Shown here piece by piece: positions 3,941-23,600 of a stretch of 64,000 bases of DNA. The stretch is from a virus (Duplodnaviria > Caudoviricetes): positions 2,053 to 66,052 of the IMG/VR virus record IMGVR_UViG_3300033513_000004. One strand, given 5' to 3'. Both the position numbers and the translations under genes were made by a program. The notes under the pieces were generated by a model. It searched no databases. It was given only the letters and a program-made list of their open reading frames with translations, and was not told the origin of the DNA. Within the stretch, counting starts at the first letter, position 1; every line of letters starts with the position of its first letter.

Positions 3941-4846
3941 ATGGATAGAGCAGTCAAGGCTACAGGATTGGAGTTCTTCGTTACCCCCAAGGAGTACGTG
4001 TTGCTGAACTCCACCACGGAGGCAGTGAAGCTGGAGGATGCCGGGGAGTGCTTCTGGATTCCACCTCGCAGCAAGATCGTCAGGCAGCATCCCAAGTCCG
4101 CCAGCGATCCACAGTACCGGGAAGTCCCCCACTCCATGATAGGACCCGAGGGTAGGTTGATCCCCGGGACTCTCATCATCAGGGACAAGATTGAGAAGGA
4201 CATCTCTGGGGCTGAGTACGTGAAGTTCAATGCCGCTCTGGCCATCAAGACCAGACTGGGGATCGACCCCGAGACCGGGACCTACACCGGGCCTCTAGCC
4301 ATGCGAGGCATCTCGGTTGTCCCACCGAAGGCCGATCTGGAGACCATCCGCAAGATCGACCGTGAGGGGATCTCCCGGTGGAAGCGGTGGCAGTATCGGG
4401 ATGCCATGGCCATGGTCTGCGCCCACGACTCCAAGAACGCCAAGCGCAAGGCTGCCGGGATGGAGCCACAGCCCAAGGATGACAAGTTGATGAGGGCTGA
4501 GATCCTCCTGAAGCAGTTGGAGGAAGAGGAGAGGGCCAGGCTGGAGAAGGAGTTCACTGAGATATCCCAGGTCCCCGCAGGACTGGAGGATACCGAGTAC
4601 AGCCTGTTCAGCGAGCCGGATTTCCGTGAGAAGGAGGTGGACCTTGCGCCGCCGGTTGAAGAGACCCCGGCTCCTGAGCCGGAGAAGGTTATGGTGGCTA
4701 GTCCTAAGGTGGAGAAGGGCAACCTGATCCCGGAGGAACTCGTCTCCCTGCTGGAGTCCAACCCCAAGGCCATGAAGCTCCTTCGGTCCAAGTACAACAT
4801 CAGGAAGCGCCACTACGATACCAAGAAGGATAGGGTGACTGGATGA
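3941..4846 (+). CDS. hypothetical protein
   Basis: 301 aa, gaggt RBS, ATGA overlap with the next gene. Confidence 0.65.
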   Translation: MDRAVKATGLEFFVTPKEYVLLNSTTEAVKLEDAGECFWIPPRSKIVRQHPKSASDPQYREVPHSMIGPEGRLIPGTLIIRDKIEKDISGAEYVKFNAALAIKTRLGIDPETGTYTGPLAMRGISVVPPKADLETIRKIDREGISRWKRWQYRDAMAMVCAHDSKNAKRKAAGMEPQPKDDKLMRAEILLKQLEEEERARLEKEFTEISQVPAGLEDTEYSLFSEPDFREKEVDLAPPVEETPAPEPEKVMVASPKVEKGNLIPEELVSLLESNPKAMKLLRSKYNIRKRHYDTKKDRVTG

Positions 4847-5535
4847 ATACCAAGAACCTCATCGACAGGCTTCTGCTCTATACAGACAACACCTTGTCAA
4901 CAGACGCCGGGACTACCGTGCGTCGAGTGAAGCACCTGGAGTGGGCTCAGGAAGTGTGGGATGAGGTTTGGCATTACGCCGAGTGGCCCTTTAGCTACAC
5001 TACGACGGGCTCGCCTCTGACAATCCCGGTCAGCCAGGGTTATGTGGCTCTCCCGGCAGGATTCTCCACGTTTGGGGACAGGGGGACCGCATACCTGTCT
5101 ACCGACTATGGGACCCCCATGACAGAGGTGAGCCCCCAACTCATCCAGAGAGCACAGAGATCCACCGGGTCTACGGCTAACCCCACGGAGTTCTGTGTCT
5201 ACATGGCGGACGATGGGCTCCAGCGGTTCCAGGTCCCCACCAACTCCGAAGCCCTCACAGTCTACATCTACTACAAGAAGATACCCCCCACCTTGGTGGA
5301 CATCGACCATGCCACGACTAGCATGCTCCAACACATCCCCGCTGCCTACCATTACTCGGTGCTGCTGGCTGGGTGCAAGGAGAAGGCTGCCAGGTCCAAG
5401 GGGGATGCCAGGGCCTCCAGTGAGTGGGCAGGTGTGTACCAGAGTGCCCTAGCCAAGATGGTCCAGAAGGAACTGTCCAACCGCTACAAGAGCAGCATTC
5501 ATCGCCTGGGACGGGCTACAGTCGGTATGTGGTAA
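4843..5535 (+). CDS. head-tail adaptor protein (P22 gp4-like, inferred)
   Basis: 230 aa with helical ends and a central beta region. Pattern W..V...AEWPF / IP..YH..LL.G is typical of phage adaptors. Position fits. Confidence 0.6.
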   Translation: MNTKNLIDRLLLYTDNTLSTDAGTTVRRVKHLEWAQEVWDEVWHYAEWPFSYTTTGSPLTIPVSQGYVALPAGFSTFGDRGTAYLSTDYGTPMTEVSPQLIQRAQRSTGSTANPTEFCVYMADDGLQRFQVPTNSEALTVYIYYKKIPPTLVDIDHATTSMLQHIPAAYHYSVLLAGCKEKAARSKGDARASSEWAGVYQSALAKMVQKELSNRYKSSIHRLGRATVGMW

Positions 5536-5546
5536 GGAGATAACCC

Positions 5547-6332
5547 ATGAAGAAGGTCTTGATTGGCGCGTTTTTGGCTGGATTGCTCCTAGCCACTCCG
5601 GTTATGGGGCAAGAGAACCCCCAGGCGTACTTTGCCCTGCGGTACGACCTGGACGCTACTGCCATCACCTACTGTAGGTGTGAGGGAGTAGATGGCAACC
5701 CTTTTGGAGCCCCCATGCCCGTGGAGTACCTCGTGGACAATGGAGGCTCGTCTACTGCAGTTACGTCTGCGACCGCTGGGCAGCCTGTGTTCGCAGGTAT
5801 GGCGAGAGGAGACGTGATCTTCATCTCGATTGGAGGGGTCCTCTACCCACGAGGGATCGTTACCTATACCGACTCCGAGAATATCGTGGTGGACGAGGCT
5901 ATCGACCTATCAGCCGCAGACTATCCTATTACCTGGAAGAAGAACAACTGTGGAACCGCCGTCACCTCCGGGTGGATCTCTACTGCCGGGCTAGAGCAGG
6001 CGACTGTGGGGTTCTTCGTCAAGCAGTTTGTGGGGGATACCAATGGGCTGGATGTACGCATTGAGGGTACAGTTGTAACTGCTGATGGTACAACCAACGT
6101 AGTCCAATTGTGGCCCTCCGGGAAGACCGTTGCAGGCGCTGCAACAGTTCAGTCCTTCAGCACTGGAGGAGTGGACCCAACCGCCGGGATCACCTCGAAC
6201 CTCTTTGTCAACATCACCGCAGCAGTGCAGGAAGTCCGGGTTGGGATGTTCCACAACACCGCCGATGATGGCAATGACCTGACTACCAATGCTGAGGAGA
6301 TCACGGTTATCCTGTTTGGGCTGAGGAAGTAA
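5547..6332 (+). CDS. tail-region protein with Sec signal peptide
   Basis: 261 aa. N-terminus MKKVLIGAFLAGLLLATPVMG|QE, followed by a beta-rich mature part. Confidence 0.6.
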   Translation: MKKVLIGAFLAGLLLATPVMGQENPQAYFALRYDLDATAITYCRCEGVDGNPFGAPMPVEYLVDNGGSSTAVTSATAGQPVFAGMARGDVIFISIGGVLYPRGIVTYTDSENIVVDEAIDLSAADYPITWKKNNCGTAVTSGWISTAGLEQATVGFFVKQFVGDTNGLDVRIEGTVVTADGTTNVVQLWPSGKTVAGAATVQSFSTGGVDPTAGITSNLFVNITAAVQEVRVGMFHNTADDGNDLTTNAEEITVILFGLRK

Positions 6333-6333
6333 C

Positions 6334-8595
6334 ATGAAGAGACTAATTGGAGTTCTCATATTCCTGCTCGCTGCCCCTGCCTACGCCCAGTTGGAGTGTG
6401 CCTCGGTAGACGGGGTTGGCTGCGCCGGGGGTGCTGGAAGCACTAATGTCGCTGCCGACTACGATTGGACTGGGCTACATACCTTCCCCGTGGACAAGCT
6501 CAGTTGGGGTGGGGCCATCCAAGCCCTGAACTCCTGCTGGCTGACTACCGGGGGGTTCACCTGTGAGGGAGCCACTGCAAACGACTTCGAGACCAGGATT
6601 GTAGTCACCGATCCCTTTGCAGATACGACCTTCACCATCGGACCTAGCCCAGATGGGAATCCCTGGATTGGGGCCACAGCCGGGGATAGCGCAGCGGCTA
6701 CCGAGGTAGATAATGTCTTCATAGGATCTGCCGCAGGGACAGCCGCGTCCAGTACTTCCACCGATAACACTTGTGTGGGGGATAATGCCTGTCTTGCGGT
6801 GACCACTGGAGATCAGAACACCGCCGTTGGGTCCGGTGCCGGTGGGACCACCACAACCGGGAGTTATAACACCCAGTTCGGTTACAGTGCCCTGACCAAA
6901 GAGGTGGGCACCGCTGGTGGTACAGCCATTGGGAACACCACCATTGTTGGGGATAATGCTGTAGCTGTGGGCTATGGAGCCGAGGCTTACGCTGGGAGTG
7001 TCTCTATCGGTACTGGGGCCGGAGATGCCGCTGCTGCTGTGGATGTCAACAATGTGTTCATCGGGGACCAGGCTGGTGGGGCGGCATCCGGTACCTCTAC
7101 CGACAATACGTGCGTAGGAGATATCGCCTGTACGGGAATGACAACCGGGGACCGCAACATCTGCTTGGGGCAGAACTCTTGCGCCGGTCTCACCACAGGT
7201 GGGAGCAACCTCTTCATCGGAGTGGATTCTACTGCCATTACTACCTCCGCCCAGAACGTGGTGATTGGGGATGGGAACATAGCTTATGGGAATACTGGTG
7301 TGGCTATCGGCTATGGGGCGGATGTCTCGGATGGGGTGGCCATTGGATACCAGGCCGGGGATGCTGTTGCAGCGGTTGATGTGGACAATGTCTTCATCGG
7401 GAACTCTGCTGGAACTGCTGCTAACGGGACATCAACTGACAACACCTGCGTTGGTGACACTGCATGCGACTCCCTCACCACGGGCGATCAGGTCGTAGTG
7501 ATCGGCGCTGATGCAGACTTGGTTGGAGCCGGCGACTCTGCGGTTATAGTCATTGGAGCCGAAGCCAAGGGTGGAAACTCGGGTGGGGTTACGATTGGTA
7601 CAAGCGCTGGGTCGGCACTCGTGGCCGGGGCGGACTACAACACGCTTGTTGGGCATAGGGCAGGGGCGGCGATGAACAACACTGGGGCTGACAACAACAC
7701 CTGCTTCGGCTACCAGGCGTGTGCCTCGGTGACATCTGGCGACAGCATCACAGCCGTAGGTTCCGGTGCTGCATCAACTACGATTACAACCGGAACCGAT
7801 GACGTATTCATTGGTCGCCAGAGCGGCTTGGGTACAGCTACCACTACCTCTAACACAGTGATTATTGGTGCCGGTGCTGGGGCGAACATAGATGGTTCTA
7901 CCAATACATGCGTAGGTTCTGGCGCATGTGACGACGTAACCGCAAACAATTCGTGCCTCGGGTTCAATTGCTTTGGTGCTGATGCCACCAATACGTTCGA
8001 CAACAACACTGGAGTGGGGACGGAGTCTGGAGAGATATTCGCAGACGACAGCGATAGCAACATCTGCGTAGGCTACCAAGCCTGTGGCGTCGGGACCTCT
8101 GCGTCTGTTACCTATGACAACACAACCACCATTGGGTCCATGGACCCAAAGGGTAGCAACTCCATTCTGCTCGGGTTCGGCACGCAGGAGCACTACTTCC
8201 ACCAGGGGACCGCAAAGGCGTTGACCGAGAGCACCGACACCCCCATTGTTCGCATTAGTGTGGCGCAGGGCGCTGCCGGGATGGTGGGAGCGGTCATCGA
8301 GTGGACGGTGGTCGCTTCGGATGGGACCGACCACCAGACCTTGACCGGGATTACACAACTCAACGCCATCAACAAGGCTGGCACGGAGACTTGCACCGCA
8401 GAAACTTTGGGCGGGACTGCCGAGGCTTCCAGTTCCGGTACGCTCGCCATGGAAGACGCACCGGACTGCGTGAGTAGTGTTGCGGACACGGTGGACTTCC
8501 AACTTGACATGGTGTCGAGCCTGACGCAGACCACACTGAATGCCTACTACACGATCCGGGTCATGGGTCCGGCCACGACGATAACTCCTCAGTGA
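6334..8595 (+). CDS. tail fibre/adhesin-like beta-roll repeat protein with Sec signal peptide
   Basis: 753 aa. MKRLIGVLIFLLAAPAYA|Q. Repeated NxxIG/NTxVG..AG units as in trimeric adhesin heads and phage fibres. 22 Cys. Confidence 0.75.
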   Translation: MKRLIGVLIFLLAAPAYAQLECASVDGVGCAGGAGSTNVAADYDWTGLHTFPVDKLSWGGAIQALNSCWLTTGGFTCEGATANDFETRIVVTDPFADTTFTIGPSPDGNPWIGATAGDSAAATEVDNVFIGSAAGTAASSTSTDNTCVGDNACLAVTTGDQNTAVGSGAGGTTTTGSYNTQFGYSALTKEVGTAGGTAIGNTTIVGDNAVAVGYGAEAYAGSVSIGTGAGDAAAAVDVNNVFIGDQAGGAASGTSTDNTCVGDIACTGMTTGDRNICLGQNSCAGLTTGGSNLFIGVDSTAITTSAQNVVIGDGNIAYGNTGVAIGYGADVSDGVAIGYQAGDAVAAVDVDNVFIGNSAGTAANGTSTDNTCVGDTACDSLTTGDQVVVIGADADLVGAGDSAVIVIGAEAKGGNSGGVTIGTSAGSALVAGADYNTLVGHRAGAAMNNTGADNNTCFGYQACASVTSGDSITAVGSGAASTTITTGTDDVFIGRQSGLGTATTTSNTVIIGAGAGANIDGSTNTCVGSGACDDVTANNSCLGFNCFGADATNTFDNNTGVGTESGEIFADDSDSNICVGYQACGVGTSASVTYDNTTTIGSMDPKGSNSILLGFGTQEHYFHQGTAKALTESTDTPIVRISVAQGAAGMVGAVIEWTVVASDGTDHQTLTGITQLNAINKAGTETCTAETLGGTAEASSSGTLAMEDAPDCVSSVADTVDFQLDMVSSLTQTTLNAYYTIRVMGPATTITPQ

Positions 8596-10349: not shown

Positions 10350-10539
10350 CTGGGGAATCGCCTGCGTGGGCCTCTTGTGGCTGGAGTGGAAGACCCTCTC
10401 TGACTCGCACCGGGATAACCACATTACAGCAGTGGTCAAGAGACTTCTCCAGGAGGAGTCGGCCAGGGGACCGATCTTCGGGCTGCTGTTCGCTATCGTC
10501 GGTATGACTGCGTTCATCTTCGGACATCTATTCTGGTGA
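10291..10539 (+). CDS. two-TM membrane protein (lysis-associated?)
   Basis: 82 aa, GTG start, two hydrophobic helices, overlaps the endolysin 3' end. Confidence 0.45.
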   Translation: MLTPEQLWTAKILALILISSWGIACVGLLWLEWKTLSDSHRDNHITAVVKRLLQEESARGPIFGLLFAIVGMTAFIFGHLFW

Positions 10540-10542
10540 TCT

Positions 10543-10842
10543 ATGAGCATAGTAGGGTGGATTAAACTGTGGTGGGCTGCCAGGAAGGCAGTCAATACCT
10601 TGGAGAAGGAGTTACCCGTGTACGACAAGAGAAAGACGATTCTGAAGGGCCTGTGGGGGTTGCTGATCGGAGTGGTTGCTGTGGCGGCTCAGGCCGGGGC
10701 CGGGTGGCTGGCCGACTCCGATACCGTCATGGGGGTTCTTGCGGCTGCCGGACTGGACAAGGATGTCATCTCAGGGGTGACACCCATCGTGGTGGCCCTT
10801 GCCCTGATGCTGAAGAACTGGCTTAGCAATCGAGGGAAGTAA
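10543..10842 (+). CDS. putative holin
   Basis: 99 aa with 2-3 hydrophobic segments and a basic C-terminus, beside the endolysin. Confidence 0.5.
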   Translation: MSIVGWIKLWWAARKAVNTLEKELPVYDKRKTILKGLWGLLIGVVAVAAQAGAGWLADSDTVMGVLAAAGLDKDVISGVTPIVVALALMLKNWLSNRGK

Positions 10843-10847
10843 CCTCG

Positions 10848-11132
10848 ATGAAGCCCCTCGGTGAGGACTACAGGCGCACCTTCATCGTCCCTGGGGTTAC
10901 TGCTCAGGGACGCTGGGGAGGTGTGCGTCTTGACGGTCCCACCACAGCCATCCCAGACGGACAGTTCAGGTGGCTGCAAAACACCAGACGCGAAGGGAAT
11001 GAGGTTGTTGTCCGAGGAGGAGAGAGCAAGGCTACATCCGCCCTCTCCGGGACCGAGATAACCGGGATCTACCAGTCCACAGACGGAGACATCGAAGTCT
11101 CCCCCAAGATCATCTACTTCAGGGAGGTATGA
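10848..11132 (+). CDS. stand-alone N-terminal segment of tail nozzle/hub protein
   Basis: 94 aa. WGGVR...IPDGQF..LQN.R...RGG, paralogous to the first ~90 aa of the next ORF. Confidence 0.6.
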   Translation: MKPLGEDYRRTFIVPGVTAQGRWGGVRLDGPTTAIPDGQFRWLQNTRREGNEVVVRGGESKATSALSGTEITGIYQSTDGDIEVSPKIIYFREV

Positions 11133-12655
11133 TGAAGAAGCCACTGGCCCCAGGGTTCAACCGCAAGGAGTTCTACCCAGGGGTTACTGTCGAGGGGGAT
11201 TGGGGTGGAATGCGTAAAGAGGGGTCCACCTCGGAGATCCCCGATCTACAGTTCAGCCACCTCCAGAATGTCAGGAGAGGGTCTGGAGAGCTTGAGATCA
11301 GAGGGGGACAGAGCAAGGCTAACTCAGTGGCTCTCTCCGGGACTGAAGTGACTGGTATCTATCAGGATACCGAGATGGATGTTGGTGGAGCGAGGGTTTA
11401 TTATATGCAAGAGACCATTACACCAGGGGTTGCTAGCTTTTTCGTCCCCAAGAGGACGGCTGGGGCTAATGGTTGCATAGAGTGGAATGGGGTGACCAAG
11501 ACTCCTAGTATTGTCTTGTCATGGCCTACCCTCCCGACTGTAGCCACCCCAAGCGTGTCTGCAAAGGTTGGGAATACGATTGTGATAGTGACCAATGGCA
11601 GCGACTGGGTAGCTCCAAACTACCGTTGGTACATCATCCATAGGACTGACGCAGGTATGGGAGTCAGCCCATTGACGTTGATGCACACCGAACTTACTGG
11701 GACCAGGAGCAGTTCTGGTTACTCTGCATCCTACCTTTCTTCTGGGAACATAGCAGTTATCGGCAATAACGCTTGGTTCGGACAGCCTGAAAGTGGCACT
11801 GGACAGAGATGGACCAGGGTGTTCAACTGGGATCTAGTTACTGCAACCTTTGAAGAGACCATTGATTGGACTACCTTGGGGTGGGCTAGTGGGAATCAAT
11901 TGGTAACTACCATTGGAACTAAGGGTACTACCCTTATCGCTGCTCACACTAGGTATGACTCTGGGCAACCCATTCCATACCTGATGTCCTTCCGTACCAG
12001 GAGTGCTGGTGGTGTCTGGTCGGCGGTAGCTACTCCAGCTGAGTTAGTAGGGGCAGGTCTTGGATTCCATGCCTTCTGTGCAGTGGAATATGGGGCAGAT
12101 ACCTACATTGGTGGGGCAGCCTACAGGTCTGGAGGACCGTTTGCCTATGCTACCCCGACCATCTACAAGTGGAATGGTACGACCTTGACACTGGCTAGGG
12201 AACTCACTACCGGAGTGCGTAACCCGAACCTGGTATCTGGTAACATCAGGCAGGCAATAACCCAAATGATTTCCTACGGGGGCAAACTCTGGTATTTCTA
12301 CGACAAGAATACTGGGGGCCTTCTGGCTTACGACTACCATCCCTGCATTGGATCATTTGATGGAAGCACTTGGACCGACGTGGCAGTCAACCTCAACACC
12401 AAGGTCTATCATGCCGACCCAGCAGGGACCCTTGACCCAAAGTTCTTCTCCGCCGCATTCATTGGGTATGACAACCTGATGTACGCCCTTCTCAAGGATG
12501 ACCCACGGAGAGTGGTAAATGGGAACTTAATCAGAGCCAGCACTTCTGACCCTACTGGGGCATGGACTGTTGAAAAGTCGGCATGGGATGCCGATGCTTG
12601 GGATGTTACTAGCTTTGAGTACGCTCCTGGGCATGGGATTGAGATATATCCCTGA
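11129..12655 (+). CDS. nozzle N-terminal segment fused to beta-propeller-like domain
   Basis: 508 aa. N-terminus aligns with the preceding ORF. The rest is Trp/Tyr/Gly/Thr-rich blade-like repeats (YGADTYIGG, YGGKLWY, IYKWNGTT). Confidence 0.6.
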   Translation: MMKKPLAPGFNRKEFYPGVTVEGDWGGMRKEGSTSEIPDLQFSHLQNVRRGSGELEIRGGQSKANSVALSGTEVTGIYQDTEMDVGGARVYYMQETITPGVASFFVPKRTAGANGCIEWNGVTKTPSIVLSWPTLPTVATPSVSAKVGNTIVIVTNGSDWVAPNYRWYIIHRTDAGMGVSPLTLMHTELTGTRSSSGYSASYLSSGNIAVIGNNAWFGQPESGTGQRWTRVFNWDLVTATFEETIDWTTLGWASGNQLVTTIGTKGTTLIAAHTRYDSGQPIPYLMSFRTRSAGGVWSAVATPAELVGAGLGFHAFCAVEYGADTYIGGAAYRSGGPFAYATPTIYKWNGTTLTLARELTTGVRNPNLVSGNIRQAITQMISYGGKLWYFYDKNTGGLLAYDYHPCIGSFDGSTWTDVAVNLNTKVYHADPAGTLDPKFFSAAFIGYDNLMYALLKDDPRRVVNGNLIRASTSDPTGAWTVEKSAWDADAWDVTSFEYAPGHGIEIYP

Positions 12656-12664
12656 GGTACTCCA

Positions 12665-13570
12665 ATGGCTTGGTGGCTCTACTACTACGACGACGACAAG
12701 AAGACCAGCGACTTCACTGCCGATCCATTCTTCAGGGAGCCTCACGTCACTGGGGTTGTCCCGACATCAAACTATCTACTCCACACAGATGGGTTGCTCT
12801 ACTCTGGTGGGTACATTGGAACTGCCGCCACTGGATACCTGGTCCAGTGGAGACCCCCAGGATCTCAGTTGGTCCTGTCGGGAGTCACCGCCATAAGGCA
12901 CATTGTCTCGTGGAGTGGCTCTCTCTGGTTCGTATCGTGGGATGGGGCAGCCCAAGGTACGCTCCACAAGTGGGATGGAGTTACTCTTTCCACCAAGGAC
13001 TCCACCGGGATACTCACCCTTCCCAAGTTGATAGCCACCAGGGACTCCATAGTGATGGCATTCGCTGGGACCGGGAATGTCATCAGGAGGTACTCGCTCA
13101 CTGCCGGGACTGCCTCCAACTTGGCAATGCCTGGGACTACCTTTGGAGTCACTAACTACGCCTCCTACGAGCAGTTGGTAGAGTACAAGGGTAAGGTCTA
13201 CATCTTTGGCACCGACTCTACCGGGGCTACGATCTACTCGGTGGATGGGACTACAGTGGCGGTGGCCAGAACGGGTCTGGCAGGGACTGCCCGGACTCTG
13301 GCAGTGTTCAACGGATACCTCTACTACCTAGTAGGGAGCTATCTCGGTAGATACAATGGTGCAGCCTGGGACGATACCCACAGCGATGTCTCGGCTCTCA
13401 CCCCGAAGAGACTGGTCCAGTACAAGGGGAATCTCCTGTTGTTCGACTCTACGGCAGTCCACAAGTCCAGTGGGACCGACACTACGACATGGACCGCTAC
13501 CGCCAGTACATCCACTACCGACGCCCACCCAGGCCAGGCCCCAGGTGATGTCTTCTACGGAGTCTACTGA
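12665..13570 (+). CDS. beta-propeller-like tail protein
   Basis: 301 aa with blade motifs WSGSLWF, YKGKVYI, FNGYLYY, YKGNLLL and HKWDG/RYNG. Confidence 0.6.
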   Translation: MAWWLYYYDDDKKTSDFTADPFFREPHVTGVVPTSNYLLHTDGLLYSGGYIGTAATGYLVQWRPPGSQLVLSGVTAIRHIVSWSGSLWFVSWDGAAQGTLHKWDGVTLSTKDSTGILTLPKLIATRDSIVMAFAGTGNVIRRYSLTAGTASNLAMPGTTFGVTNYASYEQLVEYKGKVYIFGTDSTGATIYSVDGTTVAVARTGLAGTARTLAVFNGYLYYLVGSYLGRYNGAAWDDTHSDVSALTPKRLVQYKGNLLLFDSTAVHKSSGTDTTTWTATASTSTTDAHPGQAPGDVFYGVY

Positions 13571-15318
13571 TGGCGGTATTTGTCACCACTAGGAACTCTG
13601 CTTGGAGCAGTGGCTACACCGGGTATCTCTACAAGAGGTCCCTCAACCGAACCACGAGTGCGTGGAGCATGACTGCCCTGGATCTTCCCTCCAATGTAGC
13701 CACCCTGAACGTAAGGCCCTCCTTCGCTACCTATCGTAGGAGAACCTACATAGCCGGGATGTTCTCGGACATCCTGGTGATCGGGGAAGATCAGAAGGTC
13801 TACAAGGCAGGGCTCCATGCACACCCCGCTGCTCCCACCGTGGTAGGGGCTGCCGGTGGCACCGTCACCGGAGAGGCCCGCTGCTACATCTCCTTCGTCC
13901 ACAAGATCGGTAACTTGGATGTGTCTGAGTCCAACCTAAGCCCGGTTACCGTTGTCACCCTGGCCAGTCAAGCTAGAGCATGGACTCTGCCTACTACCTC
14001 CATGGACCCCCACACCACTCATGTCAGGGGATGGGTTGGCATGTACGGGGCTATCCCGAGGAGAGCCTTTGAGACGACTCTAGGGTCTGCTGCCATTACT
14101 GAGGGAGTCCCTACTGCCGAGCTTCTAGAGATGCCCATGTTCTACAACGATGGGACTCTCTACGTCAATGACAATGGAGTGCCACCGTACTGCAAGTACA
14201 TCAAGGCATACCATGGGAGGATGATCTACGCGGGAGACCCGCAACACCCCTACAGACTGTGGTACTCGGAGTTGGACAGACCCACCGCAGTAGGGGAGAC
14301 CGATGCCAGCTATCTAGACACTACCGATGGGGAGGCCATCACCGGACTGGGACTCCACGGGGAGTCTCTGGTGGTGTTCTGCAACAGGGCCACCTATCTG
14401 GTCAGAGGCTGGACCGATGGCTCCGAGGGGGTGGCCCCGGACCTTGGGATCGACAAGGTTCTCGATGGCATCGGCTGCGTCTCTCATCACTCCATCGTCA
14501 GGATCAACGAGAGGCTCTGGTACGCCGCAGAGGATGGGATCAGGGTCTACGATGGAGGATTCTCTTACCTGATGGAGGATCTCCGTGGCTACTGGAAGGA
14601 CGACTACAAAGCCTACGTTGATGTCTACAAGGACTCGGAGGCCATTGACGACAAGGACTATACCCTCTATCGGTTGCTCATCCCGGACCGTGACGGGTCC
14701 CGCTACTATTGCGCCGACTACTCCGACACGGACCCTACAGTTGGAGGGTCTGGACTTCAACCAGCATGGTCGTTCGATACTCGTGCCCGCAACGACACTG
14801 CCATTGGGACTGTCAGGGATGCAGATGGTCACATCAAGTCTTACACCGGATCAGACGATGGGTATATTCGGCAGGAGAATGTGCTGACCGATGCGGATGA
14901 TGACAATGACACCGACAATAAGGCTTGGGAGATCCTGCTCAAGCACCAGACCTTTGGGGAATTGGCTGGGGATAACGATGAGGGCAAGGAGCTAACTCGG
15001 TTGTTCTTGCAGGCCGAGTCCGAGGATGCCCAATTTACCGTAGCTGTCTATGCCGGTGGGGAAGATGCCCACAATGCCTATACCCCCACATGGTCTCAGG
15101 TAGAGCCTGCTGCCGGACTGACCTACGACCGTGGAGATGGAACAGACGTGATTGCCGTGGCTGAATCCAAGTTCAACTATGTCCCCTCCGGGTGTGCAGG
15201 AGAGGGATTCTTCGTGAAGCTGTCGGGGAGTGCTCAGACCGGGTTCAAATTCCGTGGAGTCGGGTTCGAATATGGACCTGGCCCGTGCAAGAGGCCCTAT
15301 GCAACACTTGCCCCCTAA
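13570..15318 (+). CDS. tail nozzle/hub (P22 gp10 / T7 tube B-like) C-terminal portion
   Basis: 582 aa with GRMIYAGD..RLWYS, DGEAITGL, IGCVSHHSI and a terminal beta domain, typical of podovirus stabilisation proteins. Lacks the usual N-terminal segment. Confidence 0.7.
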   Translation: MAVFVTTRNSAWSSGYTGYLYKRSLNRTTSAWSMTALDLPSNVATLNVRPSFATYRRRTYIAGMFSDILVIGEDQKVYKAGLHAHPAAPTVVGAAGGTVTGEARCYISFVHKIGNLDVSESNLSPVTVVTLASQARAWTLPTTSMDPHTTHVRGWVGMYGAIPRRAFETTLGSAAITEGVPTAELLEMPMFYNDGTLYVNDNGVPPYCKYIKAYHGRMIYAGDPQHPYRLWYSELDRPTAVGETDASYLDTTDGEAITGLGLHGESLVVFCNRATYLVRGWTDGSEGVAPDLGIDKVLDGIGCVSHHSIVRINERLWYAAEDGIRVYDGGFSYLMEDLRGYWKDDYKAYVDVYKDSEAIDDKDYTLYRLLIPDRDGSRYYCADYSDTDPTVGGSGLQPAWSFDTRARNDTAIGTVRDADGHIKSYTGSDDGYIRQENVLTDADDDNDTDNKAWEILLKHQTFGELAGDNDEGKELTRLFLQAESEDAQFTVAVYAGGEDAHNAYTPTWSQVEPAAGLTYDRGDGTDVIAVAESKFNYVPSGCAGEGFFVKLSGSAQTGFKFRGVGFEYGPGPCKRPYATLAP

Positions 15319-15346
15319 ACTGTTGTGTCATAATACCTAACGTAGG

Positions 15347-16141
15347 TTGGAGGCATCCATGGTTTACCAGCTACCAAGCGTACCAATGACATCGTCCCAG
15401 AGACCTATTCCTGGGATGCCTGCGAGCTACCGTCAGGGTGGGGAAGCTTACCAACGGGCGGTTGGAAGGGGAGGACCGTCTACCATCCCTGGTAGTGTTG
15501 GGCAGTATGGGAGTGCTTCTCAGGCCCCCAATGTGAACATCACTGCCCAGAGAGACCCCCAATTGGATGCCCTTCTGGGGCAGCAGCAGCAGTTTGCTGG
15601 GCAGATCGGGTCCCAGTCCGGGGAGATATTCGATGCCGCCAGAGCAGGGATGGATCAGCAGGTGGCTGGTCTGGGGAATGCTGCGGTCCTCAGTGCTCTC
15701 CAGCGTGGTGGGGGTGTGGGTGCCGCTCAGGGCAGAGCGGGAGAGGTTGGGGCTCTGGCCAGATCCCAGGCTGCCAATGCATTGAGAGTCCCGCTGCTGG
15801 GACTGCAACAGCAGGCAATCAACTCCCAACTCCCTACGATCACAGGGCAACTTGGACAGATGCAGGCAGAGAAGGGGATTGGGCTCCAGGCTGCCGGACT
15901 CCAGCAGAATTGGGCGCAGATGAACCAGCAGGCTCAGATGCAACAGGCCCAGTTGGCGGCACAGCAGCAGCAGGCCCTTCTTTCTGCCACTGCCAACATG
16001 CCCCAGAACGTGGCATCGAATTACAGACCTGCTGCTGCAACGAGACCAACCTCAGCTTCAAGCAGGTATGGTGCTGCACCATCCGGTAGAACTCGACCAT
16101 CCAGTTCTAGAAGGGGTGGTCCTAGCAGTGGTCTTGCATAG
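15347..16141 (+). CDS. DNA ejection (pilot) protein
   Basis: 264 aa, Q/A/G-rich helical low complexity, located after the tail genes. Confidence 0.6.
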   Translation: MEASMVYQLPSVPMTSSQRPIPGMPASYRQGGEAYQRAVGRGGPSTIPGSVGQYGSASQAPNVNITAQRDPQLDALLGQQQQFAGQIGSQSGEIFDAARAGMDQQVAGLGNAAVLSALQRGGGVGAAQGRAGEVGALARSQAANALRVPLLGLQQQAINSQLPTITGQLGQMQAEKGIGLQAAGLQQNWAQMNQQAQMQQAQLAAQQQQALLSATANMPQNVASNYRPAAATRPTSASSRYGAAPSGRTRPSSSRRGGPSSGLA

Positions 16142-16150
16142 GAGGCTATC

Positions 16151-16741
16151 ATGCCTATTGATCCTTACAACCTAAGTGGAGCACCGGGGATTACCAATGT
16201 TAGCGGTCCCGGTCTGGCTGGGGTATCTCTCCCCTATGAGCAGGACATGAACAGCATCATTGCCGCCTATCGCAGGGCTTCCAAGTTGAAGGCTCAGCAG
16301 AGTGCGTTCCCTACCCAGGGGGTGGTACGTGGGGGTAATTCTGGCGGAGGGACCGCTGGACCCCCACCGATCCGTGGACTCAGCCAGGCCAGGGATCAAG
16401 GTAGCGACATGGTGCCAGTGACCGTGTGGCGGTCTGTGGCTATGGGAGGTCCGAACAGAACTGGTGGGAACATGGGTACTTACTATGGCTTGCAGCGAGG
16501 ACCCAACGATGTCCCCGCTGGAACTGTCATGGTCCCGCGAGATCAGGCTGCACAGTACCAGTTGTCTATGCCGCAGGGTGGGTTGATTGAGCAACCTGGT
16601 CCTAGTGCTGCTGGACTAGGTAGAGTCGAAACAGCCACACCAGGGAGCAATGAACCTTGGATCAACCCCGGTGCTCTGGCCAACCAAGCAGCGGTTGATG
16701 CTTATAATGCAACCTACTACCCACAGAGTAATAGGGGGTGA
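16151..16741 (+). CDS. putative ejection/internal virion protein
   Basis: 196 aa, G/P/A-rich, ggagg RBS, within the ejection cluster. Confidence 0.5.
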   Translation: MPIDPYNLSGAPGITNVSGPGLAGVSLPYEQDMNSIIAAYRRASKLKAQQSAFPTQGVVRGGNSGGGTAGPPPIRGLSQARDQGSDMVPVTVWRSVAMGGPNRTGGNMGTYYGLQRGPNDVPAGTVMVPRDQAAQYQLSMPQGGLIEQPGPSAAGLGRVETATPGSNEPWINPGALANQAAVDAYNATYYPQSNRG

Positions 16742-16744
16742 GAA

Positions 16745-17677
16745 ATGGCTATTGATTGGTCTTCCGACTTGCCTAACCGGCTGCTTAATAGACCCACATA
16801 CCGCAGTCCTAACCAAGAAGAACTCCGTCGTTACAAGGAGGCCATCAATTCGGCTAAAGGGGCTCTTTGGAATGCTGCCTCTACTGCCACTCCGATTGGG
16901 GAGGAGGTTGGTAGGATGATTGGGGGAGAAGTTGATGTTAGTGGGCTTATGACTTCTCCAGAACCCCCAGTCGATCTACGCTCCAGTCGTGCAGAAGTCT
17001 CCAGGCCCCCCCAGTCTGGGTGGACCCCAGAAGAGAGGGCTCAGTTGCTGGCTGAGGAGTTGTCTGGAGAGGCGGATAATCCGCAGATGGCTCTTGACCG
17101 AGCACAGGAATACGATACCGATAGGGAACTCAGGACTCTCAGGAGATTGGCCTATGGGGTCAGGGAAGTCACCCCAAGTGGGGGGACCCTGAGCCAGACT
17201 GGCATGGCCAAGACGGGTTGGGTTCCAGAATCGGTTGACGAGGATCTGAGACGTCAGTACACACGGGCCAAGAGACTCTCTGAGATGTACGCAGGAGAGG
17301 TCCCAGAGGGTGGAGGGGGACTAACCCGAGAGCAGATAGCTGAGCGTGACATCAACCTTGAGTTGATGAAGGCTAGATATGCTCCAGAGAACAGGGGTAG
17401 AACCGTTGCTGAGGGGAGAATAGGTGCTGCAAGGATGGTCATTGACCAGCTAAACGAGACCCTCGGGATGAAGTACCCCCAAGCGATAGTCGTTGACCCA
17501 GAGACCGGGGAAGCTGTGGGGATTGATTATAGCCTCCTCTCCCAAGAGGGTAGAGAAGAGTACGATCTCGCCATGAAGAGGGCCAGTGAACTCATGGCTG
17601 GAGTCTACCGGCAGAACCCGATGGACGTGTTCCCACAGAATCTAGGGACTACCAATCCAGTTACCCCTACCAAGTAG
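16745..17677 (+). CDS. putative ejection/internal virion protein
   Basis: 310 aa, helical and charged, directly before the giant ORF. Confidence 0.5.
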   Translation: MAIDWSSDLPNRLLNRPTYRSPNQEELRRYKEAINSAKGALWNAASTATPIGEEVGRMIGGEVDVSGLMTSPEPPVDLRSSRAEVSRPPQSGWTPEERAQLLAEELSGEADNPQMALDRAQEYDTDRELRTLRRLAYGVREVTPSGGTLSQTGMAKTGWVPESVDEDLRRQYTRAKRLSEMYAGEVPEGGGGLTREQIAERDINLELMKARYAPENRGRTVAEGRIGAARMVIDQLNETLGMKYPQAIVVDPETGEAVGIDYSLLSQEGREEYDLAMKRASELMAGVYRQNPMDVFPQNLGTTNPVTPTK

Positions 17678-17686
17678 GGAGGTTCA

Positions 17687-20600
17687 ATGTCCTTCCAAGA
17701 TATCGTAGGAAAGGGACTGGACTACTACAATGCCATCCTTGGTAGGATTACAGCCAGTCGAGAGGCTGCAAAGTCCCAGTTCCCTACACTATATAAGTAT
17801 CTAGGGTGGCTTGACCCCTACGAGCAGGCCAAGTTTGGGTTTGACATTCAGAATGCTCCGCTCCAGGGTTGGGGGGCATTGAGTGAAGCTGCTAGGACTG
17901 CACTAACCCCAGAGATACCCACCAGTTGGAAGTTGTCTCCCGAGGGCCAGAAAGCATACTTGAAGCACAGGTTGGCTAGAGAGAGGGGGGAACTTGATGT
18001 CAAGCCTGGACTAGCCGGTGTTCCTGACTTGGCTAAGCAAGTTGTCTCCGATATAGCAGGACAGTCTGGTATCCTCCGACAAGCAGAGACCAAGAGTGGT
18101 GAAGAAGTAGCCATGGAGGGACTAGAGGCTCTTGCCAGGAGTGCCCTTCCGGGGGAGGTTGACAGGTACAGTCCTAATCTTGATCCAATGTCCCCAGAAG
18201 TAAAGCGGATCTGGGGGAAGAGTAACGTAAATGCAGCAGTGGCCGAAACTGTTGGGAGAGGACTTGCCTCCTTTGGTCTACAGATCCCGTTTGAGCCTGA
18301 AGTCCTTGGCTATGAGGTAGGGAAGGCTGCTCTTAGGACCACCAGGAGAATGGCTGGGGAAGTCAGCAAACTAGCAAGGTACAAGCGTATCGCTGCTGGG
18401 ATGGCCACAGACGAGGCCACTAGGTTGAAGCTCCTCAATGAAGCCAGAGAGATTGAGCGTCCTGTAATGGAGGCTGCCAAGTCCACTGCCAGCAAGTTCT
18501 TGGGAGCCAGGGCCGCCGACATTTCTTTGGGGGTTGCGGCGCTACCTGGGATGCTGGAGCAATCGGCTATTGGAGCTAAGGCTGCTGCTGAGGCATATAG
18601 GAGAAGTGGCAAGTTTTGGGACCCTGATGTGATAGGTCCCCTCGTCCAAGCTACGCTGTCTACAGGAATGACTATTGGCATCGGTAAGGATCTCCATGGA
18701 GTCTACACCGAGACCAAGGCAGACATTGCTGCCAAGCGGGACAAGGGGACCGATCTGAAGACCCTCCCAGAGACCACTCCCCCTACTGGGACTCCAAAGT
18801 TGAAGCTAGCAGACCAGATCAGGGAGCAGCGGAGGCAGGCTGCCGAGATTCCTCCTGTGACCATGGAGCAGCAGATTGGGTTTACCGAGGATGACAGGTT
18901 GAAGGGGGCTCGGGCTCTGATCCAGGAGCAGGTCAGGTCTGGCAGACCTACTCCAGTCCAGTACATACTGAAGAGAGTTAACTGGCTGAAGTCAAGTGCA
19001 AAGCAGAATCTAGACGCAGTTCAGTTCATCCGCAACCAACCCCTAGCAGACAAGCAACGTACCGATGCTGCCGGGTATTTGGAGCAGGCCAGAGTTCTGG
19101 AAGGAAAGCTTCAGGGTCTGATGACTCTAGCTGCTGCTGGAAAGGACATCAGGCTGGATTCTACCCTCACTCAACTTGAGGCTGCTGGGTTCAGTGCTGG
19201 GAGACAGCATGTAGAGGATGTGCTAACCACCCACGGGATCAACCTTCCAAAGGAGGGGGCTAGACCGCTTGGAGAGGGGGCATATCACGCTGCTTGGGAT
19301 CTGGGTAAGGCTACCAAGGGAGCATGGAGGGGGCAGGATCTTGTCCTGAGAGTAGGTAGGAAGGAAGGTCCAATTGTCCAAGGGAAGCCTTGGATGATAC
19401 CTGTAGTGTCTACAGTTACCATCCCGGCTACTCCAGGGTATGTCAGGTTGGATGATACTTCTGCTCCTCCAGCAGTGGTCCTTACTGGAATGACGGAGGA
19501 CCCTGGGATCAGTCAGGTAGAGGTCTATGACGTACTGCCCAAGCTGATGTCACCCAAGGAGGCAGGTAAGACCCCACAGCAGTATCTGGAAGACCGTGAC
19601 AGTCTGGTTATGGAGATCGCCGACGACCCCGACTTCAGAACTTGGCTTGAGGATGCAATTACCAGAGGACTGCGACCAGTCCGAGATGCGGATATTCCTG
19701 CCTTGACTACTGTAGCCTATTCCAGGACAGAGGAAGTGGGGATCGTAGACCACAACCTCGGTAACTCCATGTACTACAGTGACCCTGGGGGACTGATCCT
19801 GTATGACCCAAAGAATAATCGGATCATTGCCAGAGCCGACACTGAAAGTGAATTGAGGGACAAGCAACTCTCCCTTGGGGAGGAGGGGAGGAAGCTAGAG
19901 ATCCAGAGGAGAGAGCCGCGTACCGTGCTAGTCATCTCGGATCTTGGTGGGGTTGTTCCTCCTGGTGGGTCCGTTATGAGGCAGGAACTCAGAGCCCCAG
20001 GTTTCGTTGAGATGGGAGCCCCTGCCATGGAGCCGGGGGAGGGAGCACCGATTCCTCCGATTACCCTAGCAGAAGCAGCCAAGCGAGGGGAAGCAATCTT
20101 GGCCCGTAAGCAAGGGAAGAAGCCTCCGACTGCTCCACTAGAGAGGGTCTTTCGGGAGATGGAGGCGGTGGCAGCCAAGGGGATAGAGCAGGGGGTCAGA
20201 ACCCCAGTATCCCCCCGTACAGGGAAGGAGATCGCACAGGGGGCCATCAATACGTTCAAGAAGAGGGGATTCCTGAGTCTGGTGGATCAGGAGATCGACA
20301 CCAAGGACCCCATTGCATCCATCGCATTCCTGACCCGGTTCCTGCGGAGGCCCTACGAGGTCTCCATGATCCTGGGGTTCAGGGGGGATGGCAAGGTGGT
20401 GGTACACAAGGCCGTCACGTCCGCCAAGTCTACCAAGTCCTCCAGGAGATCCCCGGAGTGGGCTGAGGCTCTAACCCAAGCAGCCAACTCCAAGGATATC
20501 GACTTCTTCTACACCATCCACAACCACACAGGTGGAGATCCAATTGCCAGTACCACCGACAGTAAGGCTGTCAAGGCACAGTTCAGGGCACTGGGGGAGA

Positions 20601-23600
20601 AGTATCGTGGTGAGGTCATCACCGACCACAAGCACTACGCCTATATCACCAAGGGACTCAAGGGAGACCTACTGAGGGGCAAGGGCAAGCTTGACATCAT
20701 GGTAGGCAAGGAGAAGTTCGGGGCGGATATCCTTGGCAGGCTGGAGAAGGAGAGCACCCTCGACCCCATGTACGCCGGACCTGCCCGGTACATTGAGCGT
20801 CCCGACAGCATAGCTAGACTCCACATTGCTCATGGGGATAGCGATAGAAGTGTGACCATCGTCTACATCACTCCCAATCCCACCGAGAAGCAAGTCTATG
20901 AGAAGCCAGAAGGCAGGGGTAGATTTGTGATGGGCAAGATGGTCAGAGCTAAGTCTCTGGGATTGGTACGAGCCATGCAGATGGTTGACCTGGACTCCCT
21001 TGCCAACCCCGAGTTCTCTGGGGAGTTCTTCCGTGTAGCGGCAGCCATGTACGGGACTCCTGTCGTGACCTTGGCATTCACCCCCAAGAACGATGCCGAT
21101 GTCACTACATATGCAAAGGTCTCCAGGGCTCTCGCAGAAGCAGGGATGATCCAGGATGCTATTGCAATGTCTGCTACCCCAGAGCGGGCTTTCTCTATCT
21201 TCGGAGAGGCTCCCTATAGGGTTACTGAGACTCCTGGACCCGAGGCAGTCATCCCTCTCCAGAAGGAGATTGCTGCTGCCAAGACTGAGGAGAGGGTTAC
21301 TCCAGAAGCACCCCCAGAGAGAGTTGTAACTCCTGTCGAGGAGAAGGCTGCCCCAGAGACTCCTCCAGTGAAGGAAGCTGCCCCCGAAGTCAAACCTGTC
21401 GAGGTTCCTACTGAGATCCCCCCAGCACGTCCTGAGGCTCCCCCTGTTAAGGTGGCTCCTCGTGGTTTGGCGGAGATAGCAAAGGAGCAGGCAGAGCAGG
21501 CTCCTGCTACCCCTACCAAGATGCCCGAGCCTGATGAGGCACTGAGGGCCATCTTCGCTCCTAAGAAAGCAGCAGGCCCCGATCTGGAGGCCATGAAGCG
21601 GGATGCAGCCAGACTTGCTGAGGGGATCTCCATGGAGCAAGAACTCCGTAGAGCCCCCGTCTACTACTCCCGCCTCTCCCGTTCGGTAGACGCCATGCCC
21701 ATTGAGAAGGGATCTGGTGAGCAGATCGCTGCTTGGCTGAACAAGCAGGCTGGGGCTAGGACCAAGGAAGGTAAGTTGGAGGAGATGAAATGGACTGGCT
21801 TGGATGATTTCTTGAAGGACAAGAAGAAGGTCACCAAGCAGGAGGTAAGGGAGTTCTTGGATGAACACCGGGTTGAGGTGAAGGATGTTGAGTATTCAGA
21901 TGTGGACCATGAGGCATATGAGAAGGCCACTAAGTTCGGCAGACCGGAGTTGGTCCTCCCCGGCGGAGAGAACTACAGGGAACTGCTGCTCACCCTACCA
22001 GTAAGGCCCACCCCAGAGGATTCCCCAGCAGCCCAGCGCGTCCATATCGATGAAGTTACGAATTTCGGCGAAACGGCGTTCCAAGTGGCAGAGTATGGCC
22101 CTAGTGGAGACTTCAGAGGCTACGTCTCTGATATCTACCGAACCAGAGAGGCAGCCGATCAGGCCCGCCAGCGATACCTGGCGAAGTATTTCCCCGGACT
22201 CAAGGCACCCTATCCGGCTTTTACCAGAAGCCACTGGAGCGAACCAAACGTCCTCTCCCACGTTCGCTTCAACGAACGCAAGGGGCCGAACGGGGAGCGT
22301 GTACTGTTCATAGAGGAGTCCCAGAGCGATTGGCATCAGAAGGCGAGGGATGTCTATAGGGGGGAGATCAAACGAGTAGCCAAGGAGAGGGGTATCTCCA
22401 AGGAGGAGTCTAGCAAGATTGTTCCTGCTGATTTTGGGTATGGAGAGGGAGTCCCTCCTGCCCCCTTCGCCAAAACTTGGCATGAGTTGGTCACGCGTAG
22501 AATGGTTCGCTACGCTGCTGACAATGGGTTCGACCGGGTTGCTTGGATCAATGGGGAAGAGACTGCCAAGAGATATGATCTGAGCAAGCACTTCTCCGAG
22601 ATTACCTGGAAGGCTGGCCCAGACAAGGGGTCACCAGTTCTGTTGCAGGGCTATGCCAAAGATGGAGGTAGGATACTTAGTGAAAGTGTGGCTCAGGTCT
22701 CCATAGACGAGTATGTTGGCAAGGACTTGTCTGCCAAGATCGAAGCAGAGCTTGCCTCTGGAAGCACCGAGGGCTCCTACTCGGGTCTTGATCTCAAGGT
22801 CGGGGCTGAGTGGGCCGAGGCTCTCTACGATAGAGCTATCCCAAGGTACATGGATGACTTCGGTAAGAAATGGGGAGCAAGGGTTGAATCGGTCAGACTG
22901 GAACCAGGAGAGTTCCAATCCCTTCCCATCACCCCAGCCATGAAGTCCTCAGTCTTGGCTGAGGGAATCCACATGTTCCAAGAGATGCTCAAGGGCAAGG
23001 CTCCCATTGACTCTGTTGAGGTTATTCTCCAGCGGACTATGGATCTCCTGTCCGGTAGGGCTCCAGAGACCAGGGTTCCTATGTTAATCCCCTCTGCCAA
23101 GACCACCAAGGAGTCCGAGAAGTGGTTGAAGGGATTCCCAGCAGGTAAGCCCGTAACCCCGACCAAGCCGACTACTGCCCCGCAAGCTGTTACCCCAAGG
23201 ACTAGGACTGCCGCTCCTGAGATCCCCAAGGTTACGGTCCCAGAGACCCATCTCTCAGAGGCAGAGATGACTGAGTTGAAGCAAGCTCGGGCTAAGTGGT
23301 CCAAGCGTCCAGACATCAGGGATGTCAGACCAAGGGCTGACAAGGAGGAGTACCGTCTCCCCCTGAATGCCGGGGTTCTCCTCTCCCATCTCCCCATGGA
23401 GGAGGTTGTATTCCAGGTAGCCCTGGCGGAGGTGTTGGAGAATCGTAAGAAGGCCAACCCCCAACTCAGAAGACTGGATTATACCCAGGAGGGAATGTCC
23501 CTTCTGCGGACGCACGATCCACAGGTAGCTATCAGAAGGGCAATAGAGCTTGGCTACGCCGAGGAGGGGGCTCCTCTCACTAAGTTGGGGTTCGAGGTAG

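Follow-up and report, generated by a model that had tools for sequence, protein, structure and literature searches.

The nozzle locus and its four genes

The window analysed here comprises 64 kb out of the 66,066-bp contig of virus record IMGVR_UViG_3300033513_000004 (Caudoviricetes) and contains a block of four consecutive open reading frames (ORFs) that appears to encode a podovirus-type tail nozzle as several separate chains. The encoded proteins have lengths of 94 amino acids (aa; P0001), 508 aa (P0002), 301 aa (P0003) and 582 aa (P0004). An initial annotation, made from the sequence alone, had proposed that the segment with which nozzles of this kind normally begin occurs twice in the block, once as a free protein and once fused to a propeller-like domain, and that P0004 carries only the remaining part of the nozzle. 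The following features were delineated in the block:

10848–11132, + strand: P0001 (94 aa), the free N-terminal module (N-module), supported as homologous to the platform segment at the N-terminus of podovirus nozzles
11129–12655, + strand: P0002 (508 aa); the start at 11132 is likelier and yields 507 aa
11129–11428, + strand: fused N-module, residues 1–100 of P0002, recognized by homology to P0001 and by the N-module hidden Markov model (HMM)
11432–11566, + strand: predicted disordered linker, residues 102–146 of P0002, with a predicted local distance difference test score (pLDDT) of <50 in the AlphaFold2 (AF2) model
11576–12598, + strand: predicted six-bladed Kelch-like beta-propeller, residues ~150–490 of P0002 (AF2 and Foldseek)
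12665–13570, + strand: P0003 (301 aa), a putative propeller protein without an N-module (family HMM homology)
13570–15318, + strand: P0004 (582 aa), the predicted nozzle body without the N-terminal platform segment (AF2, Foldseek and hhalign)

A GAGG Shine–Dalgarno sequence lies 8 nucleotides (nt) 5′ of the 94-aa ORF, the stop codon of which overlaps the start of the 508-aa ORF (ATGATGA). The 301-aa ORF begins 9 nt past the 508-aa stop codon with a GAGG site of its own, and its stop codon in turn overlaps the start of the 582-aa ORF (TGATG). Overlaps of this kind between stop and start codons imply joint production of all four proteins. The 508- and 301-aa ORFs are also in the same frame in the window, separated by a TGA codon and 9 nt (12653–12667), and a read-through product would be 812 aa long. 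Read-through of this TGA was rejected, as the two genes lie in different frames in the related loci L001 and L003.

A platform segment encoded twice

P0001 and residues 4–95 of P0002 share 52% identity (E = 7e-27), and both contain the motif GG.R...IPD.QF..LQN.R...RGG. The N-module HMM finds exactly two copies in the window, namely the 94-aa protein and the N-terminus of the 508-aa protein, which bears out the proposed duplication. In the AF2 model of P0002, the module is predicted with pLDDT values of 56–88, and its main strands are located at residues 48–51, 54–57, and 90–95.

The relationship of the module to nozzles was assessed with three alignments: A1, consisting of eight N-modules and built without any nozzle sequence; A6, the family of nozzles that, like P0004, lack the N-terminal segment (N-less nozzles); and A7, consisting of 12 single-gene nozzles of 627–668 aa (P0011, P0012, and others). 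In hhalign, module columns 25–82 of A1 align to columns 23–80 of A7 (probability 94.3%, E = 1e-7), and the A1 HMM alone matches the N-termini of the nozzles encoded in loci L004–L006 (E = 2e-7 and 2e-6). Both parts are also spanned by phrog_3287, in which positions 6–132 correspond to the N-module and positions 152–338 to P0004. In T7 gp12, the 45-residue N-terminus contributes three strands to the barrel of the platform, which binds two adaptor subunits (PMC6702177); SU10 gp17 has been described in the same way (PMC9509320). Because a single-gene nozzle corresponds to a module plus a P0004-type body, and because the N-terminus builds platform strands in T7 and SU10, these profile comparisons support the repeated ~95-aa module as a homologue of the nozzle N-terminal platform segment.

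Family libraries contributed little to this assignment. Searches of the Pfam and PHROG libraries assigned no family to the 94-, 508-, or 301-aa proteins, and no Pfam match, including to Phage_nozzle (PF25675) or crAss_MUZ (PF25731), was obtained at E ≤ 0.1 for P0001, P0002, and P0004. The nearest named Atlas clusters of the 94-aa protein are Phage_nozzle (0.94 to an 83-aa cluster, a feature-based value) and crAss_MUZ fragments (structural template modelling (TM) score of ~0.5), which we regard as a lead only. The same applies to a suspected likeness of the module to the N-terminal motif of T7 gp12, which no sequence search could confirm.

The module is widespread beyond the window. A search of 1.84 billion representatives with the N-module profile (threshold E ≤ 1e-3) identified 302 proteins, and the module is N-terminal in every one of them. 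The best 150 of these 302 proteins include free modules of ~70–135 aa (~30), proteins of ~400–520 aa combining module and propeller (91), single-gene nozzles of ~630–670 aa (10), and two proteins of ~950–985 aa. Atlas clusters of 83–93-aa viral proteins hold 127–256 members.

As an alternative to a functional free module, the 94-aa ORF might be a decaying, unused remnant of a tandem duplication, a possibility already raised in the initial annotation. The protein is short and carries no cargo, and within the window the free and the fused copy are more closely related to each other than to other modules, which could mean that the duplication is recent. Several lines of evidence speak against decay. 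P0001 retains all nine invariant residues of the N-module family, and its gene has its own Shine–Dalgarno sequence and is coupled to the next gene. Free modules are found intact in six or more loci despite being only 30–80% identical, and free-standing forms make up ~30 of the 150 best representatives. Furthermore, the free modules of L001 and L003 differ with a ratio of nonsynonymous to synonymous substitution rates (dN/dS) of 0.19 at a dS of 0.76, compared to a ratio of 0.13 for the nozzle body. Conservation in at least six loci combined with purifying selection argues that the free module is not a remnant, and we consider decay very improbable.

A maximum likelihood tree of 15 modules groups the free copy with the fused copy of its own genome for the window, L008 (97/96), and L011 (82/85), and groups the copies of L001 and L003 by type; the tree rests on a short alignment, and resolution is lacking at most of its deeper forks. 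The tandem copies that are sisters within their genome are located at 10848–11428 in the window, L008:3269–3790, and L011:3493–4034. Clustering by genome suggests either that gene conversion occurred repeatedly or that the copies co-adapted to a partner they share. It also lends weak support to the idea that both module copies use the same socket, as copies that have to fit a single partner would be expected to pair in this way.

A nozzle body without its N-terminus

The AF2 model of P0004 was built with nine homologues and is usable at residues 20–380 (pLDDT 75–90). When this model was compared to the PDB with Foldseek, the top 24 matches were all podophage nozzles (E = 4e-9 to 1e-4), with matches to Pan3, GP4, SU10, Pa223, P22 gp10, Pam1, Sf6 gp8, VP1, HRP29, Carin-1, LME-1, T7 gp12, and others. 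VIA-align yielded Z scores of 19.2 for SU10 gp17 (root mean square deviation of 3.2 over 251 residues), 17.2 for P22 gp10, and 13.8 for T7 gp12. In all of the >20 solved nozzles compared, the start of the model falls on chain residue 68–90. Independently of the model, hhalign places the P0004 family (A6) on columns 103–633 only of the single-gene nozzles in A7 (99.7%, E = 1.5e-25). These single-gene nozzles match the solved GP4 nozzle by sequence (E = 3e-4); when P0002, P0003, P0004, and the N-module profile were searched against PDB sequences, only chance matches were obtained.

A longer N-terminus of P0004 is impossible, since only 7 open codons precede its ATG. P0004 is thus, as modelled, a nozzle body that lacks the first ~70–80 residues of a canonical nozzle. 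This agrees with the earlier proposal that the 582-aa protein carries only the later part of the nozzle, and the model does not represent a complete nozzle on its own, as the N-terminal platform part is missing.

The propeller proteins

The AF2 model of P0002 (92 homologues, pLDDT 72.5) consists of the module at residues 1–100, a disordered stretch at 102–146, and a compact propeller at ~150–490. The top Foldseek matches of this propeller in the PDB are the Kelch domains of KLHL2/3/12 and Keap1 (E = 2e-7, TM score by target 0.60–0.64), and BFVD matches of P0002 include phage short-tail-fibre, structural, and sialidase-type propellers. The top 50 PDB structures include no nozzle, and P0002 has no Pfam Kelch match. 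P0002 was also considered as a second nozzle; this was rejected, as its propeller is Kelch-like and no nozzle appears among those 50 structures. The C-terminal part of P0002 is thus predicted to be a propeller, as had been claimed, and the accompanying idea of interchangeable “tail-tip” propellers gives way to that of Kelch-like side domains, which are not of the nozzle type. The propeller is hypervariable, with no near homologue found and relatives that are only 25–33% identical. On the basis of the model, it is probably a distal binding domain.

Orthologues of the 301-aa protein P0003 are present in L001, L003, and L007, and this family is well conserved (45–58% identity). The HMM of this family matches the propeller part of 38 proteins that combine N-module and propeller (best E = 2.5e-27), and in the case of P0092 the match extends over the full length; additionally, P0003 has a weak Pfam match to DUF6242 (E = 0.01). 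This homology supports P0003 as a propeller that is paralogous to the body of the module–propeller proteins, minus the module and the linker, in line with the earlier reading of the 301-aa ORF as a free propeller. In L001 (5511–5700), the 3′ end of the 492-aa gene looks out-of-frame, and a full-length 301-type ORF begins 5′ of the called start (stop-to-stop 5511–6461). The gene calls in this region overlap or conceal a frameshift.

Gene orders and natural fusions

Gene contexts were read at about ten loci, and the following orders were found:

Window, L001, and L003: free module, module–propeller fusion, 301-type gene, nozzle body
L007: propeller gene, free module, 301-type gene, nozzle body
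L008: free module, module–propeller fusion, nozzle body, without a 301-type gene
L010 and L011: free module, then module–propeller fusion, where the contigs stop
L002 and the locus of P0032: module–propeller fusion, nozzle body, without a free copy

A free module followed by a fused one in tandem occurs in six of these loci. An N-less nozzle always has a module gene directly 5′ of it in these loci (the window, L001, L003, L007, L008, L002, and the P0032 locus). No additional N-module and no Kelch propeller gene occur within 20 kb in L004–L006, where the nozzle is complete. P0011 and P0012 (632 and 634 aa), which are distant relatives of P0004, are encoded directly after a SU10_adaptor gene, the canonical position of a nozzle gene, and have a module-like motif at their start.

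Two natural fusions connect these arrangements. P0104 (985 aa, L012:228–3185) and P0165 (984 aa) each contain the N-module, a propeller, and the nozzle body in one uninterrupted ORF, with module matches at E = 4e-17 and 2e-15 and the nozzle body starting at residue ~430 (E ~1e-119 to 1e-137). The two proteins originate from different samples and assemblies and share 53% identity in their nozzle part. Their nearest relatives carry separate bodies of 564–566 aa, which points to fusion or fission within a narrow clade. The fusions further indicate that the module–propeller gene and the nozzle body form one functional unit. The proposed pairing of the 508- and 582-aa proteins is thus backed by perfect co-occurrence as well as by P0104 and P0165. 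They also suggest that the Kelch propeller effectively amounts to an insert placed between the platform strands and blade 1, with the gene having been cut after the propeller.

The second assembly proposed in the initial annotation, in which the 94-, 301-, and 582-aa proteins together would replace the 508-aa and 582-aa pair, stands only in part. The 301-aa protein does resemble a propeller minus its module, and in L007 the free module gene directly precedes the 301-type gene; L008, in contrast, has a free module without any 301-type gene. The pairing of the 94- and 301-aa proteins is accordingly plausible but not general. If the two assemblies were mutually exclusive, they could constitute a host-range switch, as had been suggested. 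This would fit with a platform that offers only six sites, for which two modules would have to compete, with the L007 adjacency, and with the combined length of the 94- and 301-aa proteins (395 aa), which is the size of a typical module–propeller protein (~400 aa). However, we found no promoter-like or terminator-like site above chance in the block, and no long inverted repeats at 10500–15400, where the longest are 14–19 nt and imperfect. No recombinase is present among the Pfam and PHROG matches of the block, and no invertase signal was seen in it. The overlapping stop and start codons imply fixed co-expression, L008 lacks a 301-type partner altogether, and the binding of the 301-aa by the 94-aa protein is putative only. 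Mutually exclusive assemblies therefore appear unlikely, and we interpret the arrangement as a co-expressed block and not as a switch.

A nozzle probably completed in trans

Taken together, the reading we favour, and consider reasonably probable, is that the nozzle is a split, multi-chain structure, in which the platform of each 582-aa subunit is completed in trans by the 508-aa protein's module, which thereby tethers a Kelch-like domain there, and in which the 94-aa protein uses the same kind of site. The N-terminal segment of the nozzle would have become detached from the 582-aa body and would survive as a portable anchor of ~95 aa. The copy in P0002 may insert in trans into the platform of the 582-aa hexamer and thereby complete it, and the flexible linker of ~45 residues would then hold a propeller, probably one that binds receptors or glycans, at the adaptor/nozzle junction, the site occupied by the short tail fibres of SU10 and T7. 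The 94-aa copy would most likely sit at an equivalent site, where it would serve as an empty plug or attach the 301-aa propeller. As the four proteins are encoded in one translationally coupled block, virions would probably bear both kinds of appendage. The data presented establish the homologies and folds, the absence of the nozzle N-terminus, a conserved free module under selection, and fusions that occur naturally; physical complementation, its stoichiometry, any contact between the 94- and 301-aa proteins, and a receptor-binding role of the propellers are inferred.

Several observations weigh against this reading. The C-terminal 200 residues of P0004 (383–582), which are expected to form the rest of the platform, are poorly predicted by AF2 (pLDDT ~30–40); sequence homology of the P0004 family extends up to A7 column 633 at the C-terminus of the single-gene relatives, in the putative platform/fibre-dock domain. 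The cut between module and body is also not clean, as ~28 residues, equivalent to one hairpin, apparently occur twice, once where the N-module ends and once where P0004 begins. At the sequence level, the A1 profile matched none of the nozzles in the PDB, T7 gp12 and P22 gp10 included. Lastly, there are two N-modules for a single nozzle body, and six sites for two module types leave the stoichiometry unexplained, with L002 managing with one module and L008 having a free module without a 301-type partner.

Some of these observations would be accommodated if the 582-aa protein were self-sufficient and the module, derived from an ancestral nozzle N-terminus, did not complete the platform but served solely as an anchor for side proteins at another location, such as the dodecameric adaptor or a fibre-dock loop. 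With 12 adaptors versus six nozzle subunits, two module types could be accommodated, which would explain the tandem free and fused genes, and the hairpin overlap suggests that the body kept its own blade-1 strands. Moreover, SU10 has a gene for a short fibre just before its nozzle gene, and this fibre docks on a loop of the nozzle (PMC9509320). In the single-gene relatives and in the 984- and 985-aa fusions, however, the module is part of the same chain as the body and takes the canonical N-terminal position, and in the examined loci no N-less nozzle occurs without an upstream module gene. The N-terminal strands of T7 are, furthermore, integral to the platform barrel (PMC6702177). On balance, we regard a self-sufficient 582-aa protein as the less probable explanation, though the main alternative.

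A further, rather speculative reading concerns the two module proteins. Both N-module proteins may dock on one nozzle, with competition for the six platform sites as one possibility and, as another, alternation around a collar of 12 members that matches the 12 adaptors. Each virion could then display a mixture of a Kelch-propeller appendage, a bare plug, and/or the 301-aa propeller. The detached N-terminus, which occurs in ~300 protein clusters, might represent a general plug-and-socket system with which podophages swap or multiply host-binding modules while leaving the DNA channel untouched.

Comparison with known systems

Nozzles are usually viewed as single-chain hubs. P0004 resembles the solved podophage nozzles of SU10 (gp17, 7z47/7z4b), P22 (gp10, 8u10), Sf6 (gp8, 7sg7), VP1 (gp16, 8zkk), and T7 (gp12, 7boy/9jyz) in its predicted seven-bladed-propeller core (VIA Z scores of 13–19), in the location of its gene upstream of those for ejection proteins, and in belonging to a genome with an SU10-type adaptor. 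In those nozzles, the N-terminal platform strands are part of the same chain, whereas here they are missing from the body and encoded twice elsewhere. PDB sequence searches detected no similarity of the T7 and P22 nozzles to P0004 or to the N-module profile. True homologues are the single-gene nozzles of distant metagenomic relatives, which are unsplit and contain the module (columns 23–80) and the body (columns 103–633) in one chain encoded after the adaptor gene.

The closest published case is a nozzle made of two chains that was recently reported for the Pseudomonas phage A1002, in which gp39, the nozzle-rope protein, and gp42, the nozzle-base protein, jointly rebuild a canonical nozzle (published November 2026; PMC13730344). 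Both systems have in common that the detached piece also bears docking sites or cargo for host-binding appendages, which in our case is deduced from the genes. The A1002 nozzle is cut at a different place: its detached piece, gp39, comprises the C-terminal platform part and two blades, together with a 300-Å rope for fibre dimers. In the window, judged against the published description, the detached piece is instead the ~95-aa N-terminal segment, which is duplicated as a free and a fused copy and carries a Kelch-like propeller as cargo. A relationship to A1002 by sequence was not seen, although no search was aimed at one.

According to published descriptions, phage fibre and spike anchors, such as T7 gp17 at the gp11/gp12 interface and SU10 gp16 on the nozzle dock loop, likewise use a short conserved N-terminal module to tether variable distal domains at the adaptor/nozzle junction. 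In the window, the position of the gene just before the nozzle gene matches that of SU10 gp16 (PMC9509320). Unlike in these published anchors, the anchor here would derive from an N-terminus that was the nozzle's own and is now missing from it, and a monomer-type propeller takes the place of a trimeric fibre as cargo. In the literature, we found no paper on a detached, duplicated, and propeller-fused N-terminal nozzle segment.

The N-terminal platform strands of the nozzle appear to have been turned into a small, duplicated, and transferable anchor that exists in free, propeller-fused, and nozzle-fused forms. If this anchor completes the platform in trans, it would provide a simple structural rule for the attachment of receptor-binding domains in uncultured podophages. 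It would then also account for many orphan virion genes of 85–100 aa that are annotated as “hypothetical” and offer a compact handle on the exchange of host-binding parts among phages.

Genome setting and flanking genes

By its gene content, the window reads as a complete podovirus-type phage genome. At the DNA level, no record among the GenBank phages was similar to the window, and protein searches there were uninformative as well. Scans of viral contigs for relatives of the block found none, and a scan of metagenome contigs returned only the already known L007. The following genes are recognisable outside the block:

190: major head protein
4843–5535, + strand: head-tail adaptor of the SU10_adaptor family (Pfam PF24175, E = 1.9e-14, 55 bits with a cut-off of 27)
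6334–8595, + strand: 753-aa trimeric fibre/spike-like protein (PHROG tail spike family, E = 6e-14)
9750: endolysin
15347–25912, + strand: ejection/internal virion proteins of 264, 196, 310, and 2741 aa, which follow the nozzle body directly
58834: large terminase
61380: portal

The structural Atlas neighbours of the 753-aa protein are fibre clusters with Peptidase_S74 and PTL_trimer (TM score 0.65–0.70). This ORF was also considered as the true nozzle, or as a second one, and was rejected in view of its fibre-like character and its lack of a nozzle HMM match. The position of the ejection genes directly after the nozzle body is shared with the relatives. The largest of them, the 2741-aa ORF (17687–25912), matches the internal virion protein family phrog_6651 (E = 1.7e-22), and this match to a known family is confined to residues 2234–2563.

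Directly 5′ of the free N-module, a 99-aa ORF (10543–10842) encodes a membrane-protein-like product that is possibly holin- or spanin-like. Small membrane ORFs likewise precede the block in L001, L003, and L012, suggesting that lysis genes lie between the adaptor/fibre genes and the nozzle block.

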